The notes: generated from the sequence alone by a model not told the origin. 44,690 bases of DNA from Candidatus Troglogloeales bacterium (GCA_016195485.1 JACPZM010000035.1:1-44690); one strand, 5' to 3'; numbered from the stretch's first letter, positions 4,604 to 39,399 are shown. Numbers and translations: made by a program.

Positions 4604-5716
4604 TTAATCTGTGTGAAAAGGAACCATTGAGTAAGGGCGGGGTGACCTCGCCCCGACTGCAGGCGCCTGCTTCGCTTGTGGATATTGAAATTGCTTTCCT
4701 TCGTAATTTTGAACGACGACTTCATTTTCGTCCATATAAAGCAATGTTTCTTGCGGAAGAATCGCCACCTTTCCCCCGCCATTGGGGGCATCAATTACAT
4801 AATGTGGCACCGCCATTCCAGAGGTATGGCCCCGTAATGCCGAAATAATCTTTAATCCTTTTTCGACGCGTGTGCGAAAATGGTGCGTCCCCCGAACAAG
4901 ATCGGCCTGATAAATATAATACGGCTTGACCCGAATAGACAATAAGTTCTGCATCAGCCGCTTCATGGTGTCAGGATCATCGTTCACGCCGTCGAGCAAT
5001 ACCGTCTGACTACCTAACGGTATCCCCGCATCGGCAAGCCGCCCGCAAGCGGTTGCGACTTCCGGGGTAATCTCATCGGGATGATTAAAATGAAGATTCA
5101 TGTACAACGGATGATATTTTTTCAGCATGAGACAAAGATTTTCGGTAATACGAGATGGCAGCGATCCGGGGACCCGCGTTCCGATCCGTATGATCTTAAG
5201 ATGGGGAATCGTGCGAAGCGCGCTTAAAACCCGCTCCAAAAGCATATCCACAACCATCAGTGGATCGCCTCCGGAGAGGATGATGTCCCGAATCTCCGTA
5301 TGAGCGCTGATATAGTCGATGACCTGTTTTAGCTCAGCGGGGGTTAATGTTCCGGGAGATCCGACAAACCGTTTTCGCGTGCAAAACCGGCAATAGATGG
5401 GACATTGATTGGTTACAAACAAAAGCGCCCGATCAGGATATCGGTGAACCAGATTAGGAACCGGAGAATCCTCTTCTTCATGGAGCGGATCTCCGGAGGC
5501 GCAACTTAAATCCTCCTCTCCCTCCGAAAGAGAGGGCACCACCTGTTTCCAGATCGCGTCCCCCTTTTTCTTGATTGTCTTTAAAACATGCGGCGTGATC
5601 CGGATCGGATATTCCTTGACGATTTCTCGCACTGCGTCTGCGGGAACGCCTAAGACCTTTTCCAGTGTCTCCACATCATCAATACTGTCTTTAATATCTC
5701 TTTGCCACTGTTCCAT
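4604..5716 (-). CDS. KamA-family radical SAM aminomutase (lysine 2,3-aminomutase-like)
   Basis: 370-aa ORF with the CPIYCRFCTRK radical SAM cluster motif, the SGGDPL motif, and overall KamA/EpmB architecture. The C-terminal tail (AVGARSPRP) is encoded by a repeat half-site. Confidence 0.85.
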   Translation of the reverse strand: MEQWQRDIKDSIDDVETLEKVLGVPADAVREIVKEYPIRITPHVLKTIKKKGDAIWKQVVPSLSEGEEDLSCASGDPLHEEEDSPVPNLVHRYPDRALLFVTNQCPIYCRFCTRKRFVGSPGTLTPAELKQVIDYISAHTEIRDIILSGGDPLMVVDMLLERVLSALRTIPHLKIIRIGTRVPGSLPSRITENLCLMLKKYHPLYMNLHFNHPDEITPEVATACGRLADAGIPLGSQTVLLDGVNDDPDTMKRLMQNLLSIRVKPYYIYQADLVRGTHHFRTRVEKGLKIISALRGHTSGMAVPHYVIDAPNGGGKVAILPQETLLYMDENEVVVQNYEGKQFQYPQAKQAPAVGARSPRPYSMVPFHTD

Positions 5717-12128: not shown

Positions 12129-12169
12129 CCGCCCCTTCAAGGAGCGGCAAGGTGGGGATAGGGTTCATT
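12129..12169. repeat. family A palindromic element, forward orientation
   Basis: CCGCCCCTTCAAGGAGCGGCAAGGTGGGGATAGGGTTCATT is near-identical to 33005..33046. Its TTCA supplies the TGA stop codon of miaB on the minus strand. Confidence 0.7.
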
Positions 12170-13478
12170 CAATAACCTCACCGTAAAGGGCGCCTGTAGT
12201 GGTTTCCGTGACTCTAACAGAAACAAATTCTCCCGGATTAAAAGCCGTTTTTGGAAAGACCACGGTAAGATTTCCTGCTGTCTTTCCCATTTGTTGATTG
12301 ATCCCTTTATCCGCACTTCCTTCAATAAGAACGCGCACCGTCTGCCAGCTATAACACCGATGTTTTGCAAACGCAATCTCATGCTGTATATTGTTCAGGC
12401 GAACAATCCGATTCGTTTTATCAACCTCCGCAACATCATCAGGATAGTCCCTTGCCGCAATCGTTCCTTTTCGTTCAGAGTATTTAAAAATAAAGGCGTT
12501 ATCAAATTGTACGGCATCCATCAACTGCACTGTTTCTTGAAAATCTTTCTCCGTCTCAGTCGGAAATCCAACGATCATATCGGTTGTTAACGTAGTCGTG
12601 GGGATAACACGGCGAATCGTTTTCACAAGACCCAGATATTCCGCGGATGTATAAGTTCGATTCATCAGGTTTAAAATCCGATCGGAGCCAGATTGCAGAG
12701 GGAGATGAATATGATTGCAGATGTTGGGATATTCGGCAATCGCGTATAGTAATTTTTCAGAAAAATCTTTTGGATGAGGCGATGTAAATCGAATTCGTTT
12801 CAAACCGGGAATCTGCGCGGCCTTTACAATCAGATCGGCAAATGTCTCTCCTTCATGACAATAAGAATTAACATTCTGCCCTAACAGGGTTACCTGCGGG
12901 TATCCTGCGGCTACAAGTTGTTCCAACTCATTTAAGATCGAAGGAATAGAGCGACTTCGCTCCCGCCCGCGTGTGTAGGGGACCACGCAAAAGGCGCAGA
13001 AATTATCACAGCCGCGCATAATCGTGACCCATGCATTGACCCCTTCTATGCGAGTCGGGGCAATATCGCTGTAGGTTTCATATTCCGAAAGTGATGCCTC
13101 TACCTCATGATGATTCGTCTGAACGATTCTGTCAATGAGATTTGGCAATGCCCGATAATTATCAGGACCTACGACCAGATTGGCCACCGGGTGCATCAGC
13201 AATTCCTCTTTGAGATTCTGGGCCATACATCCTAATACGCCAACAACGAAAGGTCGATGCTCGGCCTCTCTTTGCTTTTTGAGCGGGCGCAGGATGTCCA
13301 AACGGCCGTATATCTTCCGATGGGCATTTTCCCGAATGGCACATGTATTCATCAACACCACCTCGGCATCGTTTGCTGACGATGTCATCTGATGGCCTTT
13401 GGCAATTAAAATCGACCGAATCAGTTCCGAGTCGGCAACGTTCATCTGACAGCCGTATGTTTCTAAAAGGATGTTCAC
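12165..13478 (-). CDS. miaB: tRNA-i6A37 methylthiotransferase
   Basis: 437-aa ORF with the N-terminal ETYGCQMN...NTCAIRE...GCMAQ cluster, radical SAM CDNFCAFCVVPYTRG, and a TRAM C-terminus. The GTG start overlaps the mtaB stop (GTGA). Confidence 0.9.
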   Translation of the reverse strand: MNILLETYGCQMNVADSELIRSILIAKGHQMTSSANDAEVVLMNTCAIRENAHRKIYGRLDILRPLKKQREAEHRPFVVGVLGCMAQNLKEELLMHPVANLVVGPDNYRALPNLIDRIVQTNHHEVEASLSEYETYSDIAPTRIEGVNAWVTIMRGCDNFCAFCVVPYTRGRERSRSIPSILNELEQLVAAGYPQVTLLGQNVNSYCHEGETFADLIVKAAQIPGLKRIRFTSPHPKDFSEKLLYAIAEYPNICNHIHLPLQSGSDRILNLMNRTYTSAEYLGLVKTIRRVIPTTTLTTDMIVGFPTETEKDFQETVQLMDAVQFDNAFIFKYSERKGTIAARDYPDDVAEVDKTNRIVRLNNIQHEIAFAKHRCYSWQTVRVLIEGSADKGINQQMGKTAGNLTVVFPKTAFNPGEFVSVRVTETTTGALYGEVIE

Positions 13479-14815
13479 GACAACACCCCCACGGCCATAT
13501 CGCCCGTAACCCCCATGATAAAAACAGGCAATAATTGACCCGCCAGGTTGGTCGAACTCCTAACCCTCACCCGTATATAATTGTCGGTGTAGCCGGAATA
13601 AAAAGTCGGAACGCCGACTGCGTTATTATTTTCAAATAAAACATCAAACACCCTGCCAATAGCCGCGTTATAAAATGTTTGTTTTTTCTTTTTGGAAAGA
13701 TCGCGCAGAATCTGTGACCGTTGTCGAATAATGGACGAAGGGACATTTTGAAGACCCATCCGCGTCAGACGGGTTCCCTCCCGCATTGAAAACGGAAACA
13801 CATGCAGATAGGCAAAAGGAAGCAATTCAATGAGGGAAACCGTTTCGAAAAATTCTTCTTCTCCTTCCCCGGGAAATCCCACCATCACATCGGCGCCCAG
13901 AGATAAATTTTGGACTTTATCCATCGCTTCATTAACAAACGTAATATAATCTTCTCGCGTATAGCGCCTGCCCATCTTGGATAAGATATTGTTACTGCCG
14001 CTTTGCAAAGGCAGATGCAGATGCGGACAGAGCTTTGTATTGCCCATGTAATCTAAAAGCAAAGGAGAGACAGTGGTCGGCTCAATCGATGAGATCCGAA
14101 CACGGGCAAGCCCCTTGACCGCATCCAGCGCGATGATCAGATCAGCCAATCCCCTATCCTCACAGGAATATTCTCCCAGGTTCACGCCAGTTAATACAAT
14201 CTCTTGGAATCCTTGCGCGGCCCAAAGAGATACTTCTAACAAAACATCATCAAACTTTCGGCTTCGCTCTCGCCCTCGCGTATAAGGAATAATGCAAAAC
14301 GAACAGAAGAAATCACAGCCATCTTGAATCTTAACGTTGGGTCGGGTTTGATGATTAAAGACCGCAAATGTGGGTAGCGTAAAATCATCTTTACTGATTT
14401 TGGGTGAGTGGAAGATTAGCGGTTCTGATAATTTGCCAAAACCTTTTCCAAGCGCGTTTTGAATCAGCGCAGGAAGGAGCATCTTATGACCAGAACCTGC
14501 AATCAGATCAATCCCCGGCATCTTTCGCAAGGCATCGACCCCAACCTGCGCATAACACCACGTAACGGCAAGAAATGTGTTTGGGTTTTTCTTCAGGATT
14601 TTTCGTATCAAGCGACGCGTGTCCGCCTCAGCGGATTCTGTAACCGAGCAGGTGTTAATGACGCAAAGATCGGCAGTCGTTGCAGGATCCACAACCGTAT
14701 ATCCAGCCGTTGCAAACCCTCCGCCCAGGGAGTCGCTTTCTGACTGATTCAGCCGGCACCCAAAGGTATGAAATGCAACAGTCAGGTCTCGATGGGGTAA
14801 CCGGCTTGGATCCAT
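13475..14815 (-). CDS. mtaB: tRNA t6A37 methylthiotransferase (MtaB-type)
   Basis: 446-aa ORF with AFHTFGCRLNQSESD, NTCSVTE, radical SAM CDFFCSFCIIPYTRG and a TRAM C-terminus. It reads VTWCYAQ where homologues have VTGCYAQ. Confidence 0.85.
   Translation of the reverse strand: MDPSRLPHRDLTVAFHTFGCRLNQSESDSLGGGFATAGYTVVDPATTADLCVINTCSVTESAEADTRRLIRKILKKNPNTFLAVTWCYAQVGVDALRKMPGIDLIAGSGHKMLLPALIQNALGKGFGKLSEPLIFHSPKISKDDFTLPTFAVFNHQTRPNVKIQDGCDFFCSFCIIPYTRGRERSRKFDDVLLEVSLWAAQGFQEIVLTGVNLGEYSCEDRGLADLIIALDAVKGLARVRISSIEPTTVSPLLLDYMGNTKLCPHLHLPLQSGSNNILSKMGRRYTREDYITFVNEAMDKVQNLSLGADVMVGFPGEGEEEFFETVSLIELLPFAYLHVFPFSMREGTRLTRMGLQNVPSSIIRQRSQILRDLSKKKKQTFYNAAIGRVFDVLFENNNAVGVPTFYSGYTDNYIRVRVRSSTNLAGQLLPVFIMGVTGDMAVGVLS
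13605..13622. repeat. family C repeat half-site inside mtaB
   Basis: GTCGGAACGCCGACTGCG is identical to the right arm at 40135..40152. It encodes AVGVPT within the MtaB TRAM region. Confidence 0.7.
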
Positions 14816-15141
14816 GCTCCAAATCCACCTTCCATCGAGGCAACATTCTCATATCCCATTCTTTTCAAGGACTGAGCCGCGACTGCGCTTCTTCAGCCTC
14901 CTGCGCAATGCAGAATAATGAGCTTTGCTTTATCGTTGACACGTCGTTCAATCGTCATTTCAAGAACCCCGCGCGGAATAGAAGCGGCTTCTGGAATCCG
15001 TCCTTTCTGGTATTCTTCCGATTCTCGAACATCGATTAGAAGAAAGTCGGCCTGTTGATCCATCTTCCCCTTGACTTCATTGACCTGTAACAATTGAATC
15101 TCTTGTTCTGCTTCATGAACAAGATCTTTCCATCGCTTCAT
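14782..15141 (-). CDS. single-domain rhodanese sulfurtransferase interrupted by an in-frame TGA (14893-14895)
   Basis: The sequence reads ...LIDVRESEEYQKGRIPEA...LILHCAGG-TGA-RSAVAAQSLKRMGYENVASMEGGFGAWIQAGYPIET-TGA. The TGA falls in the C-x-x-G-x-R-S active-site loop, and the 36 downstream in-frame codons complete a canonical rhodanese fold. Confidence 0.7.
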
Positions 15142-16251
15142 TTATATTTCTCCTAAAAGGTGCGAAAGAACGGGCGCAACAAACGCTTCAAACCCGTCCA
15201 CAATATCTTCTGGTTCTCCAGACAAACAAATCACAGGCTTCATTGCGATAACCCCTAATAGAGTTGGTTTTATATTAAAGGATTCCGAAATGATCGCTTG
15301 TCTATGGGCCTCCAAAGTGGCGACGGGATTGGTCATCTGATAGGCGCTTACCCCTTTAATCAGATCGGACATAAAGTATCCTCCTAACGCGCGGGTTGCC
15401 CCAGAGAGCACGACCATATCGACCTTTCCAACAACTTCTACTATTTTTTTTATAAATGGCAAAAGGTCGTTTGGCATGATTCCGTAAAACAAGGGAAGCC
15501 CCCCTGATTTTGAAATCATCGCGGAGAGGCAAGACGCATTACAGTCATACTTTGACCCGATCTTGTAAGTGGTCCCGGGAGCGATCAGCTCTTTTCCTGT
15601 TGAGAAGACGGCCACCTTTGGGGGACGCGAGACCTTCACCTTCAGAATCCCCTGATGAGCCAGTACAAGAATATCGCTTGCATTAAGCGTGCGCCTCTTA
15701 CGAAAGATAATGTTGCCAACTTTGCGCACAGACCCTTGAAGAATAATATTCTCATGCTTTTCCACGCGACGGATTACATGAATCACCTCGTCTGATCGCT
15801 CTACTTCAGTCTCCTTCAAAACAGCATAATGGCCTTCCATAAACCGTTTAATCGCCATATAGCTATCTATCTCCACCTTAACTGTCTTTCCCAATGGAAG
15901 TTCAATCGCCATACTCGGATCGGGAATATCCCCTACAAGATCGAATGTCATCGGCCTCTTAAACGAGGCCAATGCGGTACCGGAAGCAAGAAGAAGATAC
16001 CCGCTAACCGTCGACTTTGAATATGGGGGATCGTCCGCCACTGCGGCCAGATCTTCCGAAAGAACGCGTCCTATCGCGCTTACAATAGCCACTTCCTCCG
16101 ACTCGCGAGGGCCTTTCTCGATCCGGTCAAGCAAACACTCCAGCGCTTCTTTTTTAGCAACCTTTACCCCAGTCATTTTCATGCCGGTTATGTTTTTCAT
16201 GTTTTTCATCTTTTGAAAACAGCCACCGAAAGAATTTCCAAACAGGCACAT
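15142..16251 (-). CDS. MoeA-like molybdopterin-binding protein, divergent and lacking the C-terminal domain
   Basis: MoeA-like N-terminal region (AIGRVLSEDLAAVADDPPYSKSTVSGYLL versus the usual ..PPFd.SAMDGYA.), an MoCF domain (VAVFSTGKELIAPG, VLSG, KPVICLSGEPED), and the protein ends right after ..APVLSHLLGEI. The TAA stop abuts the rhodanese ATG. The start is uncertain (ATGAAAAAC ATGAAAAAC repeat). Confidence 0.65.
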   Translation of the reverse strand: MCLFGNSFGGCFQKMKNMKNITGMKMTGVKVAKKEALECLLDRIEKGPRESEEVAIVSAIGRVLSEDLAAVADDPPYSKSTVSGYLLLASGTALASFKRPMTFDLVGDIPDPSMAIELPLGKTVKVEIDSYMAIKRFMEGHYAVLKETEVERSDEVIHVIRRVEKHENIILQGSVRKVGNIIFRKRRTLNASDILVLAHQGILKVKVSRPPKVAVFSTGKELIAPGTTYKIGSKYDCNASCLSAMISKSGGLPLFYGIMPNDLLPFIKKIVEVVGKVDMVVLSGATRALGGYFMSDLIKGVSAYQMTNPVATLEAHRQAIISESFNIKPTLLGVIAMKPVICLSGEPEDIVDGFEAFVAPVLSHLLGEI

Positions 16252-24142: not shown

Positions 24143-25618
24143 TTAGCGAGAGAGGGCAAGCCCCCCGATAAGATATTGTATATCCTCGTCGTCGAATCGC
24201 AATCCGGCCCCAACGAAAAGAGTATCCCGTTCGGAATTGAGTATCTGATCATACCCTACGCCAAACTGTATATAGCGCAATAGTTCATACTGGGCCGAAA
24301 CTTTCAGATGAGGTTTCTTGGAAAGCGGATCGTCACTGTTGAAGTCCCACGCGTCAACGGAAAATTTCAGATGGTCGTCTTGCGAATAAAGATCGCCGCC
24401 TATTCCAAACGCATTTTCCATAAGGCCAATTCGAAGACCAAAGCTTGGAAGCCGCTTGCCAAACTGCGCGGAGAATTTTAATTTTCGAGTTGTTTGCAAG
24501 TCGGTTACAGTACTGGGGACCCCATCTTTTGTGGTGAGGTTCGTCGTGAGCGCAACCTTGCCTACCGGATCATCTACCAATTCCACCAGATAATATTTGT
24601 CCTGCCGCGGTGACAGTGTTAATGAAAAATAGCCTTTACTTTCCGATTCCTCCAATTGATATTCGTTTCGGAAACCGACATTGGTTTTAAAGCGTTGAAT
24701 CCGTCCCAATGTGTTTGAAACCCCTTCCAGCGCGGTGTTCAAATTGTTATAAGCCTTTTCGTCGGCAAAGAGCTTTCCAATGGTTCCCTCGCCCTGTTCC
24801 ACCTTTTTTGTAATCGACTGAACAGATTTTAACGACCCTCCCAAGTCATCCAACGTTCCAGATAGTTTATCGTACGCCCCTTGATCATAAATCAGCTTTC
24901 CAACGGTTCCCTCCCCGCTTTCTATTTGTTTTGTGATCTTGGTTAAACCTTTTAACAGCGTTTGCCCTTCTTGATTGAGAAATTCCGAGAACGATTCCAG
25001 ATTAGATATCGAATTGCCCATCGACTTTTGATTGGAACGAACAAATGCGTCAATGCCTTTTGTGAGAGACCGAACCTGATTGACAATATCCTTCATTGAT
25101 TGCTCCCCTTCTTTCGTTCCGAAGGCGCCCCGCAACGAGGCGGTAACAGCGCCGACATCATCGGCCACCTTTACAAATCGGGTAATCAGATCGGCGACCT
25201 GACCTGTGAGCTGTTCAACACTGGCCCCTTTATTCACGGACGGGAGTAATGTCCCATTGTCTGCTAAAGACTCTTGACTGTGCCCGAGCAAAATTTCCAT
25301 AAAACGATCTCCCAGAAGGCCGCTAGATGCAATCGATGCGGAACTGTCTTTCGGAATCTCTATCCCTTGGTTAATGAGGAGTGTCACGACCGCTCCTCCC
25401 TTTTTTTCCAATTTTATCTTGTCTACTTTCCCAACCTCTACCCCGGAGATGCGTACAGGCGCCCTTGCCTCTAATCCCAACACCGTGGGAAAAACTACGG
25501 AAATGCGATATCCTTTATCACCGAATGTGAACCCGCCCACTTTAAACGTCATGTAAGATAGGACGATGGCTCCCAGCATGACCACTACCCCCACTTTGGC
25601 TTCTGTTGTAAACGACAA
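24143..25618 (-). CDS. MlaD/MCE-family protein, long form with coiled-coil repeats
   Basis: N-terminal TM helix plus MCE domain (TEAKVGVVVMLGAIVL..., VRISGVEVGKV) and repeated GEGT.GKL..D...Y..L units. A TTG start at 25618 after GAGGAGG is proposed. The longer ORF start at 25648 lies inside a palindromic repeat. Confidence 0.75.
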   Translation of the reverse strand: MSFTTEAKVGVVVMLGAIVLSYMTFKVGGFTFGDKGYRISVVFPTVLGLEARAPVRISGVEVGKVDKIKLEKKGGAVVTLLINQGIEIPKDSSASIASSGLLGDRFMEILLGHSQESLADNGTLLPSVNKGASVEQLTGQVADLITRFVKVADDVGAVTASLRGAFGTKEGEQSMKDIVNQVRSLTKGIDAFVRSNQKSMGNSISNLESFSEFLNQEGQTLLKGLTKITKQIESGEGTVGKLIYDQGAYDKLSGTLDDLGGSLKSVQSITKKVEQGEGTIGKLFADEKAYNNLNTALEGVSNTLGRIQRFKTNVGFRNEYQLEESESKGYFSLTLSPRQDKYYLVELVDDPVGKVALTTNLTTKDGVPSTVTDLQTTRKLKFSAQFGKRLPSFGLRIGLMENAFGIGGDLYSQDDHLKFSVDAWDFNSDDPLSKKPHLKVSAQYELLRYIQFGVGYDQILNSERDTLFVGAGLRFDDEDIQYLIGGLALSR

Positions 25619-27389: not shown

Positions 27390-28895
27390 ATGTCGACAAA
27401 AGGAGATCAGTTTCGCAGGGTATCGGGTGGTCTTATTTTATTACTTATTGGAACGATTGTCGGGGTGACATTGGTCTCGGAGTTTCACCTGTTGCCCGTG
27501 GGGCAGGCCGTCAATGATCCGGCAAAAGAAAAATCTGCAGAGATTCTTCCGTCAGATTCGCAGATTTTTGTAAGTATCTCAAAAGCCGTAACGCCCGCCG
27601 TGGTCAATATTTCGACAACACGGATTATCAAAGACAACAGCGAGCAGGGAGGATTGCCATTTAATGATCCTTTATTCCGAAGATTTTTCGGGGAGGGGGG
27701 GGAGCCTTTTCAGCATCGCAGAGGTGCGCCTCAACAACGAAAGGAACAGAGTCTAGGTTCGGGGGTGATTGTCTCTTCCGACGGGCTGATTGTAACCAAT
27801 AATCATGTCGTGGAAGAAGCAGACGAGATTAAAGTGCTTCTGGAGGACAAGCGCGAGTTTAAGGGAACGGTGGTAGGGAAGGACAAGAAGAGCGACATTG
27901 CCGTTATTCGGATCGAGGCAACCCATTTGCCTACGGTTCCGTGGAGTAATTCCGATAACCTGCAAGTGGGAGAGTATGTGGTTGCCGTTGGGAATCCGTT
28001 TGGGTTAAATCAGACCGTGACCATGGGAATCGTCTCTGCGATTGGCCGGGCCAATGTTGGCATTGCCGATTATGAAGATTTTATACAAACCGATGCGGCC
28101 ATTAATCCTGGCAATTCAGGCGGGGCATTGGTGAACATTCGCGGGGAATTGATTGGAATCAACACGGCTATTTTTACGCGGAGCGGCGGTTATATGGGGG
28201 TCGGCTTTGCAGTGCCTAGTAATATGGTTCGGTCTGTTATGGATTCTCTGGTGAAAACCGGCAGGGTTACGCGAGGGTGGTTGGGGGTCTCTATCCAAGA
28301 CATTACCCCGGCGTTGGCAAAGGAGTTTGGGCTGAAGGATTCCAAAGGTTCTCTCGTGACCGATATTATGCCCGACTCCCCAGCGGCAAAAGCAGACTTA
28401 AAAAGGGGGGATGTTATTTTCTCTTTTACGGGGCACGAGATTGAGAACTCCAGCCATTTGAGAAATATGGTCGCGCGTACCGGCGTTGGGACAAAGGCGT
28501 TGGTGAAAATCATCCGGGATAAAAAAGAGAAAGAAATTTCTGTGACCCTTTCCGAACAGCCAAAAGAGGTCGCAGAAAAGGGTGAGGAAAAGGAGGCAGA
28601 ATCTGGGTCATTTGGCATTTCGGTTCAGGATGTCACCCCTGATATGGCCGAGCAGTTTAATCTTGATCCGAAGGAAAAAGGGGTCATCGTTGTGCAGATA
28701 GAGGAGGGGAGTCTGGCCGAGGAGGCGGGTCTGCGGGAAGGCGATTTAATTATCGAAATAAACCGGAAACCGGTTTTGGATCTTAAAAGTTATGAAAGGC
28801 TTTTTACCAAAATAAAGAAGGGCGAGGCTGTCTTAATCTTGATCAATCGACAAGGAAGTCGGTTTTACTTGACTCTCACGAAAGATATGGGATGA
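27390..28895 (+). CDS. htrA: periplasmic serine endoprotease DegP/HtrA with two PDZ domains
   Basis: The ATG at 27390 follows GGAGGT. A signal anchor is present, along with the catalytic triad context (TNNHVV, DIAVI, GNSGGAL) and two PDZ regions. Confidence 0.9.
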   Translation: MSTKGDQFRRVSGGLILLLIGTIVGVTLVSEFHLLPVGQAVNDPAKEKSAEILPSDSQIFVSISKAVTPAVVNISTTRIIKDNSEQGGLPFNDPLFRRFFGEGGEPFQHRRGAPQQRKEQSLGSGVIVSSDGLIVTNNHVVEEADEIKVLLEDKREFKGTVVGKDKKSDIAVIRIEATHLPTVPWSNSDNLQVGEYVVAVGNPFGLNQTVTMGIVSAIGRANVGIADYEDFIQTDAAINPGNSGGALVNIRGELIGINTAIFTRSGGYMGVGFAVPSNMVRSVMDSLVKTGRVTRGWLGVSIQDITPALAKEFGLKDSKGSLVTDIMPDSPAAKADLKRGDVIFSFTGHEIENSSHLRNMVARTGVGTKALVKIIRDKKEKEISVTLSEQPKEVAEKGEEKEAESGSFGISVQDVTPDMAEQFNLDPKEKGVIVVQIEEGSLAEEAGLREGDLIIEINRKPVLDLKSYERLFTKIKKGEAVLILINRQGSRFYLTLTKDMG

Positions 28896-32129: not shown

Positions 32130-32140
32130 CCTCTGCTAAT

Positions 32141-32179: not shown

Positions 32180-33316
32180 ATGTCGCGCTTTGCGATGCCC
32201 CTGCTTCGTTGGTATAAAAAGGCCGGTCGAGATTTGCCTTGGCGCAAAACAACCGTAGGCGGCGTCCCGCCTGATCCTTACGCTATATGGGTCTCCGAAA
32301 TCCTACTGCAACAGACGCAGGTTTCAACGGTTCTCCCTTATTACCATCGGTTTCTATCAAATTTTCCGACGGTGCAGTCTCTGGCCGCAGCGGAAATTGA
32401 CGACGTCTTAAAATGTTGGCAGGGGCTAGGGTACTACGCCCGCGCACGCAATCTATTGCTTGCCGCGAGAAGAATCGTAGACCGATTTGGCGGAACCGTT
32501 CCATTGACACTTTCGGAACTACTCACCCTCCCTGGCATTGGCCGATCCAGCGCAGGCGCGATATTAAACATCGCCTTTAGTCAGCGCCATCCGATATTGG
32601 ATGGGAATGTTAAACGGATCCTCGTTCGAGTTTTTTGCATTACCAAAGACCCGAAGGAAAGACAGGTCACTGAGAAGCTATGGCGGCTTTCAGAGTCCCT
32701 TCTTCCAAAAACGAGAGCGGATCATTTCACACAGGCGATCATGGATTTAGGGGCTACGATCTGCACCCCTGCGGCCCCGAAATGCGATTGTTGTCCTGTT
32801 TCCCGTCTATGTAAGGGATACCAAAAAGGGTTGCAAAATAAACTGCCAATAAGGCCGGTTCGGAAAAAGACGCCGCATTATGATTACGTCTGCGCCATTA
32901 TTCGTAACGGTGAAAAGGTCTTAATCAAGAAGCGTCAGGAGACGGGTCTTTTAGGAGGGTTATGGGAATTCCCCGGCGGCAGGGTCAGCAACCTTTGTAG
33001 TGATGCCTCCCCTTCAAGGGGAAGCAAGGTGGGGATGGGGTTCATTGGCAAGTCTCTTAATGAAATTATTGAGAAAGAAGTCGGGCAATCGGTCGCTTTG
33101 ACTCCGTTGGGACTTGAAATCAAGCACGCCTTTACCCATTTTAAAATGACGATTCATCTGTTTGCAGGTTCAGTTCGTAAATCAAAGACGCAACTTCCAC
33201 TTAAATGGGTTCCGATAGATCAGCTTAAAGAGCACCCATTTTCTTCGGCCCATCAAAAAATCATTTTGAAATTGCAAAATGTGAGACAATCCCGGCGTGA
33301 TTTATGGTGTGGTTGA
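32180..33316 (+). CDS. mutY: A/G-specific adenine DNA glycosylase carrying an in-frame repeat insertion
   Basis: 378-aa ORF with the HhH-GPD region (LPWRK, GLGYYARARNL), an Fe-S cluster loop (CTPAAPKCDCCPVSRLC) and a NUDIX-like C-terminal domain (LWEFPGG...HAFTHF). It contains an extra segment, SDASPSRGSKVGMGFIG. Confidence 0.85.
   Translation: MSRFAMPLLRWYKKAGRDLPWRKTTVGGVPPDPYAIWVSEILLQQTQVSTVLPYYHRFLSNFPTVQSLAAAEIDDVLKCWQGLGYYARARNLLLAARRIVDRFGGTVPLTLSELLTLPGIGRSSAGAILNIAFSQRHPILDGNVKRILVRVFCITKDPKERQVTEKLWRLSESLLPKTRADHFTQAIMDLGATICTPAAPKCDCCPVSRLCKGYQKGLQNKLPIRPVRKKTPHYDYVCAIIRNGEKVLIKKRQETGLLGGLWEFPGGRVSNLCSDASPSRGSKVGMGFIGKSLNEIIEKEVGQSVALTPLGLEIKHAFTHFKMTIHLFAGSVRKSKTQLPLKWVPIDQLKEHPFSSAHQKIILKLQNVRQSRRDLWCG
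33005..33046. repeat. family A palindromic element inside the mutY coding sequence
   Basis: GCCTCCCCTTCAAGGGGAAGCAAGGTGGGGATGGGGTTCATT is near-identical to 12129..12169. Confidence 0.75.
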
Positions 33317-38961: not shown

Positions 38962-38979
38962 TTTTGACGCGACTCCTAA
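38962..38979. repeat. 18-nt direct repeat TTTTGACGCGACTCCTAA (copy 2, contains the stop codon of the PilZ gene)
   Basis: Identical to 36227..36244. CTA at 38976-38978 is the TAG stop on the minus strand. Confidence 0.85.
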
Positions 38980-39314
38980 TTCTGAAGACTCTGAATAAAC
39001 TCCTCATAGTCTGCTGAAGAATATGTCAGGAAAACCCCCATCCCGTTTTTAAGCGCCACGCGCGCGATTGCTGGAGGAACCCGCTTGGCCCACTTTACAA
39101 TCCCTTCACACCGAATTTTTTTTCCAACTGCATGCTCCAGTTCAATGACCAGTTTCGTTTGAGGCGGATAAATCCGGCTCGACTTTAGAAATATCCCTTT
39201 CAGAGAGACATCGTGGGTCAACCCAATATGTAACATGGAGTTGTCTCCAAATCGCACAGGCATCTGCTTCGTATAACGCTTATCAACTCTCTTCTGGTGG
39301 TCATAGCTAAACAT
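38976..39314 (-). CDS. PilZ-domain protein (c-di-GMP receptor-like)
   Basis: The start is placed at ATG 39314. An N-terminal basic RVDKRYTKQ stretch lies where the PilZ RxxxR element is expected (no strict RxxxR seen), followed by DVSLKGIF (D.S.GG-like) and a beta-barrel remainder. Confidence 0.65.
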   Translation of the reverse strand: MFSYDHQKRVDKRYTKQMPVRFGDNSMLHIGLTHDVSLKGIFLKSSRIYPPQTKLVIELEHAVGKKIRCEGIVKWAKRVPPAIARVALKNGMGVFLTYSSADYEEFIQSLQN

Positions 39315-39399
39315 CGTGCAATCTCCAAGACAAAGACACAAACTGGCAATTCCCTTATCGGAGCTTCTGACACAAAACTTTAAAAGAGTAGAAAAAAGA

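Follow-up and report, generated by a model that had tools for sequence, protein, structure and literature searches.

An in-frame TGA in the active-site loop of a Nitrospirota rhodanese gene is probably a plain stop derived from a glycine codon by a single-base change

The window, by which we mean the whole stretch of DNA analysed here, is a 44,690-nt contig (JACPZM010000035.1) from the metagenome-assembled genome (MAG) GCA_016195485.1, assigned to a Candidatus Troglogloeales bacterium. A cluster of genes on its minus strand opens with a divergent MoeA-like gene (15142–16251), whose TAA stop abuts the ATG of a single-domain rhodanese gene (14782–15141). Downstream of the rhodanese lie an mtaB-like gene for a radical-SAM methylthiotransferase (13475–14815) and a miaB-like methylthiotransferase gene (12165–13478), both on the same strand, which bears out the sulfur-transfer context that an earlier reading of the locus, made from the sequence alone and hereafter called the sequence-only reading, had described. 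The order MoeA-like, rhodanese, MtaB, MiaB and alpha/beta hydrolase is kept in four Nitrospirota/Manganitrophaceae loci (L012–L015), with proteins that are only ~35–60% identical. The MoeA-like protein (369 aa, weak matches to MoeA_N and MoCF_biosynth) evolves much faster, at ~35% identity, than the methylthiotransferases, at ~55–61%. The conserved cluster may represent a dedicated sulfur-delivery module for tRNA methylthiolation. Within it, the mtaB-like gene overlaps the 3' end of the rhodanese gene by 34 nt, its ATG (14815) lying 34 nt upstream of the terminal rhodanese TGA. This overlap is consistent with translational coupling between rhodanese and mtaB, which a stop at 14893 would disturb.

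Such a stop is present. Read on the minus strand, the rhodanese frame begins with an ATG at 15141 and runs through 82 sense codons to ...LIILHCAGG, where it meets a TGA as codon 83 (14895–14893). A further 36 codons follow in frame (14785–14892), encoding RSAVAAQSLKRMGYENVASMEGGFGAWIQAGYPIET, before a terminal TGA at 14784–14782, hence the gene comprises 119 codons with the internal TGA included. The annotated protein, P0019, covers only the 82 N-terminal codons (14896–15141; 14893–15141 in the ORF listing, where the stop is counted). When the frame was read through the TGA, the Pfam Rhodanese profile PF00581 matched residues 21–112, equivalent to profile positions 3–101 of 102, with 73.4 bits against a cut-off of 22.2 (E = 2.3e-20). 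This match spans the stop, so the coding continuity past the TGA is real and far beyond chance. The TGA itself falls inside the active-site loop, C79-A-G-G-(codon 83)-R84-S85, aligned with the CAGGGRS of orthologues, and in the read-through protein the catalytic Cys starts a six-residue loop of the form C-x-x-G-x-R-(S/T). Translation and the Pfam search thus confirmed, at every coordinate, the claim of the sequence-only reading that a TGA interrupts a rhodanese active-site loop with the coding frame continuing after it.

Apart from the interruption, the gene resembles other single-domain rhodaneses (PF00581, COG0607 PspE/GlpE type), the closest solved structures being 6MXV (E = 1.6e-44 to the read-through protein), 1YT8 and 2HHG. 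It shares with these a full-length domain, a catalytic Cys in a C-x-x-G-x-R-S loop and a size of ~119 aa. The TGA falls on the variable x of this loop, which is occupied by F in 6MXV, by L in 2HHG and by Gly in Nitrospirota orthologues. Unlike ordinary rhodaneses, the frame in the window is cut at codon 83, whereas it is intact in sibling strains: an uninterrupted frame for the complete domain is absent from the window and from one Logan contig (L001), both of which carry the TGA, and is present in three other contigs (L002–L004).

These three contigs encode P0121, a 119-aa protein in the same 90% cluster as P0019, which has Gly at position 83 and is identical to the window's read-through protein at its other 118 residues. 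They derive from the sister MAG GCA_016201925.1 (JACQBX010000055.1, L002) and from the Logan assemblies of SRR12113413 (L003) and SRR12113411 (L004). Their nucleotide identity to the window is 99.78–99.91% over 8.8–20 kb, which places them in the same species population. All three carry GGA at codon 83. Across the 360-bp gene, L004 differs from the window solely at base 247 (T->G, giving GGA), and L002 and L003 show this difference together with one synonymous change. The 108 bases after the TGA, including a hairpin proposed as a SECIS element, are identical in the GGA-carrying strains. On the plus strand, the change at 14895 is an A instead of a C, that is, a G→T on the coding strand. Given the GGA in near-identical copies from the same species, the TGA is a conserved Gly codon altered by a single G→T transversion. 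The TGA-carrying contig L001 (2229 bp), a Logan assembly of SRR12113414, differs from the window at two other sites, so the TGA is not one assembler's slip.

A homologue search of 5.8 billion proteins returned 261 homologues, and the best 120 of these were all at least 113 aa long except for the window's own 82-aa P0019. All of the 60 closest orthologues (51–84% identity, Nitrospirota) have the loop C-x-G-G-G-R-S with Gly at position 83. Among the 119 homologous proteins listed, this column contains G (n = 89), S (n = 9), N, T and A (n = 5 each), V (n = 3), L (n = 2) and M (n = 1), and no Cys. Species-representative genomes, a set in which the window's own species is not included, were also scanned for rhodanese orthologues, the best match having 65% identity. 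At the aligned codon, the Nitrospirota representatives have GGA, GGC, GGG or GGT and the distant alphaproteobacterial homologues mostly TGG; TGA, TGT and TGC were found in none of the 80 loci. The sequence-only reading had proposed an alignment of orthologues as a check on the TGA, and the outcome is GGA in the same species, Gly in the closest relatives and neither Cys nor TGA in ~200 homologues, the strongest form of the orthologue result that this reading had named as counting against recoding. Trp (TGG) occupies the equivalent loop position in 27 of the 80 representative loci, for example as CAGAWRS or CAGGWRS (L032–L067, alphaproteobacterial), so this position of the rhodanese loop tolerates Trp.

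The proposed SECIS is an imperfect hairpin at 14848–14876 on the minus strand. It is indeed present in the predicted fold, as the sequence-only reading had described, but its stability is no better than chance. From the UGA onwards, 60 nt of RNA have a predicted folding energy of -12.1 kcal/mol, compared with -12.36 ± 2.59 kcal/mol for dinucleotide shuffles (z = 0.10), and 102 of 200 shuffles folded as well. Of 4232 50-nt segments that follow ordinary codons in the window's genes, 27% were at least as stable. Rfam returned no match, either in a permissive scan of 14650–15250 at E up to 10 or in a scan of the whole window at the gathering threshold. Neither tRNA genes of any type nor selA, selB or selD were detected in the 44.7-kb window or in 11 sibling loci (~35 kb). 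This absence of Sec machinery covers ~45 kb of genome and is weak evidence.

Several ways of reading the codon can be weighed against these results. In the one that the sequence-only reading had raised, the UGA would be decoded as selenocysteine by SelB and Sec-tRNA with the help of the hairpin 17–45 nt downstream, placing a Cys79-x3-Sec83 pair in the persulfide loop. Sec-containing rhodanese families exist, with no motif, CxU or UxU (PMC9312934, PMC1976440), some Nitrospirae have Sec machinery (PMC9312934), and the spacing of the hairpin is roughly suitable. The known Sec-rhodaneses (COG0607 form 1, form 2 with CxU, and the UxU variant; Zhang and Gladyshev, PMC1088965, PMC1976440; reviewed in PMC9312934) share with the window gene a rhodanese domain and an in-frame TGA near the active site, and each family contains several TGA-carrying genes from Sec-using organisms. 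Unlike in those families, the window TGA stands at C-x3, a position that matches neither CxU nor UxU; it aligns with Gly, is absent from the same-species GGA contigs and from all orthologues, and is followed by no structure above chance. The position of a Sec residue usually aligns with Cys in some relatives. Selenoproteome papers tabulate such Cys-containing homologues for many selenoprotein families (PMC9312934, PMC1976440), and in this rhodanese the column is without Cys. The identical downstream DNA of the GGA strains argues further that no SECIS has evolved together with the UGA. Selenocysteine recoding was rejected on the homologue residues, the same-species GGA, the chance-level hairpin and the lack of an Rfam match, and we consider it highly improbable. 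The same very low probability is given to a newborn selenoprotein, in which a Nitrospirota strain that uses Sec would decode a de novo UGA as Sec by way of a fortuitous hairpin, with the same Cys-x3-Sec pair. Without Sec, UGA could act as a sense codon either by reassignment to Gly (genetic code 25) or by efficient near-cognate read-through, e.g. with Trp, giving a working CAGGWRS loop. Gly is both the replaced residue and the one that code 25 would insert. Near-cognate read-through of UGA probably inserts Trp, and distant homologues naturally have Trp here, one of them with exactly the CAGGWRS loop (L037), hence a Trp read-through product could plausibly function. However, TGA is the ordinary stop of 14 of the 39 window genes, the rhodanese gene's own terminator included, at positions consistent with the sibling gene calls, and codon 83 of the rhodanese is the only in-frame TGA seen among the window genes. 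This stop-codon usage rules out a UGA=Gly code, and the Nitrospirota are not a code-25 lineage. Folding and Rfam searches found no read-through-promoting structure or conserved context, and the background leakiness of UGA would yield only a small fraction of full-length protein. Use of the UGA as a sense codon is thus very improbable in our estimation.

The TGA is one of three changes that are restricted to the window and/or SRR12113414 contigs and that lie within 2.55 kb (12347, 14560 and 14895). In each, G→T (C→A on the plus strand) affects the initial base of a Gly codon, with G following, and the differences from the sibling contigs include no private synonymous change in the same stretch. 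Besides rhodanese G83* (GGA→TGA at 14895; window and L001), they comprise mtaB G86W and miaB G378W, both GGG→TGG. The mtaB change (14560; codon 86 at 14560–14558) occurs in the window only, with GGG in all four other contigs including L001, and its Trp replaces a conserved Gly before the third cluster-ligand Cys (VLGC; MiaB structure 7MJZ). The miaB change (12347; codon 378 at 12347–12345) occurs in the window and in a Logan contig of SRR12113414 (L011), with GGG in L002–L004, and its Trp lies in a stretch aligned to "IG" of the paralogous MtaB. On the plus strand, 14895 and 12347 are CCG>CAG and 14560 is CCC>CAC, a partial match to this context. The clustering of three sites in 2.55 of 35.6 kb has p ~0.015, computed post hoc, as does the occurrence of the full CCG>CAG context at two of the three (p ~0.015, likewise post hoc). 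Exact-protein look-ups of the window MtaB with W86 and of the PilZ protein encoded at 38976–39341 returned no match. Another Logan contig of SRR12113414 (L008) has two private G→T changes, at 32135 and 32145, where the window and three other contigs have G; these sites precede the start of an intact mutY-like gene (32180–33316; HhH-GPD and NUDIX_4) by 45 and 35 nt. The two assemblies of SRR12113414 therefore disagree at 14560, 32135 and 32145, always as G versus T, which shows that the reads of this run are heterogeneous for G/T at several sites.

Recent nonsense mutation and base-call error had also been among the suggestions of the sequence-only reading, and these gain support from the same-species GGA, a single base apart. 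Under both, codon 83 is a GGA altered to an ordinary stop. On balance we lean towards a real, young, deleterious allele specific to one strain or sample, which would exist in cells and not just in reads. This is favoured because two assemblers each placed T in the consensus at 14895 and at 12347, the MiaB W378 allele having also been recovered from SRR12113414, and because C>A is not clearly over-represented: it makes up 7 of 24 singletons found only in the window/SRR12113414, compared with 3 of 14 other-sample singletons and 3 of 15 shared sites. C>A is thus a normal part of the population variation, and as a sign of run-specific oxidative damage the singleton spectra of the samples gave no clear C>A excess. 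As in young nonsense polymorphisms and pseudogene alleles of bacterial populations, one base accounts for the stop, the gene shows no other decay, and strains 99.9% identical carry the intact allele; the sole distinction is the two co-occurring radical Gly-to-Trp changes in both downstream genes. These same changes, two further G→T that hit conserved Gly codons within 2.5 kb while private synonymous changes are absent, speak against a real allele, as a pattern of this kind resembles damage or error that escaped filtering more than variation that selection has let through. An artefact of sequencing or library preparation, caused by guanine oxidation during DNA preparation (8-oxoG) or another G→T error at modest coverage in an organism whose intact rhodanese is P0121, stays a serious contender with an appreciable chance of being correct. 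The oxidative shearing artefact takes the form of C>A/G>T in the signature context CCG>CAG and usually affects a small share of the reads (Costello et al. 2013, PMC3616734), with a bias in read orientation (G>T in read 1, C>A in read 2). The window TGA resembles it as a plus-strand C>A in the full context that is seen in the assemblies of one run only, every other sample having GGA, and that is accompanied by other G>T at damaging positions. One of these, mtaB W86, is unique to the window, L001 from the same run having Gly there, and L008 adds two private G>T of its own. Moreover, the Logan contigs of SRR12113414 measure 1.2–3.7 kb, compared with 8–20 kb in the sibling runs, which hints at lower coverage there. 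Unlike the artefact, which stays below ~20% allele fraction (PMC3616734) and should not win the consensus of two assemblers at 14895 and 12347, the T allele of the window did reach consensus in both. The very low coverage that an artefactual consensus would need also sits badly with a 44.7-kb contig. In either case, as nonsense polymorphism or as sequence error, the finding is an ordinary disruption of a conserved rhodanese gene by one base.

If the allele is real, an ordinary rhodanese sulfurtransferase of the Nitrospirota MoeA-like, rhodanese, mtaB, miaB cluster would have had its conserved Gly83 codon changed from GGA to TGA by one G→T transversion (C→A at 14895 on the plus strand), and translation would end after 82 residues. 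A fragment with Cys79, but without Arg84, Ser85 and the C-terminal third of the fold, would most probably be inactive. Nothing beyond the background leakiness of UGA would be expected to restore the full protein. A trace of functional protein through Trp read-through is conceivable by analogy with the natural CAGGWRS loop of L037, and nothing suggests that such read-through is programmed. Translation of the rhodanese frame would terminate 78 nt short of the mtaB ATG and no longer 34 nt beyond it, a shift that could weaken translational coupling. A more far-reaching proposal, which we regard as tentative and rather unlikely, is that the stop is real and forms part of a strain-specific decay of the rhodanese-MtaB-MiaB sulfur-insertion cluster, driven by strand-coordinated oxidative G→T mutations.

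For annotation, the 82-aa P0019, which is on record for this MAG, should be regarded as a disrupted gene or a probable error and not as a distinct short rhodanese. A real allele would mean the loss, in one Nitrospirota strain from groundwater, of a rhodanese whose synteny with two tRNA methylthiotransferases extends across the lineage. The damaging changes that this strain also carries in both methylthiotransferases would then hint slightly at a joint function of the three genes. The locus also calls for caution: when the coding frame of a redox or sulfur enzyme continues cleanly past an in-frame TGA, the gene mimics a selenoprotein, and here it was comparison within the same species that exposed a single G→T.

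Other differences between the assemblies were also observed. The sister MAG contig (L002) is missing ~90 bp of the MoeA-like gene (window 15284–15371), giving a protein of 323 instead of 369 aa; it also has a shorter miaB call (426 versus 437 aa) and a 1-bp gap at 5222. Sibling assemblies therefore carry lesions or errors of their own. Dense clusters of SNPs relative to the siblings, with 10–11 SNPs within ~70–200 bp, occur at 2013–2083, 25000–25199 and 28424–28540, mostly at or near the ends of sibling contigs; they resemble tracts of strain mosaicism or recombination, not point mutation.
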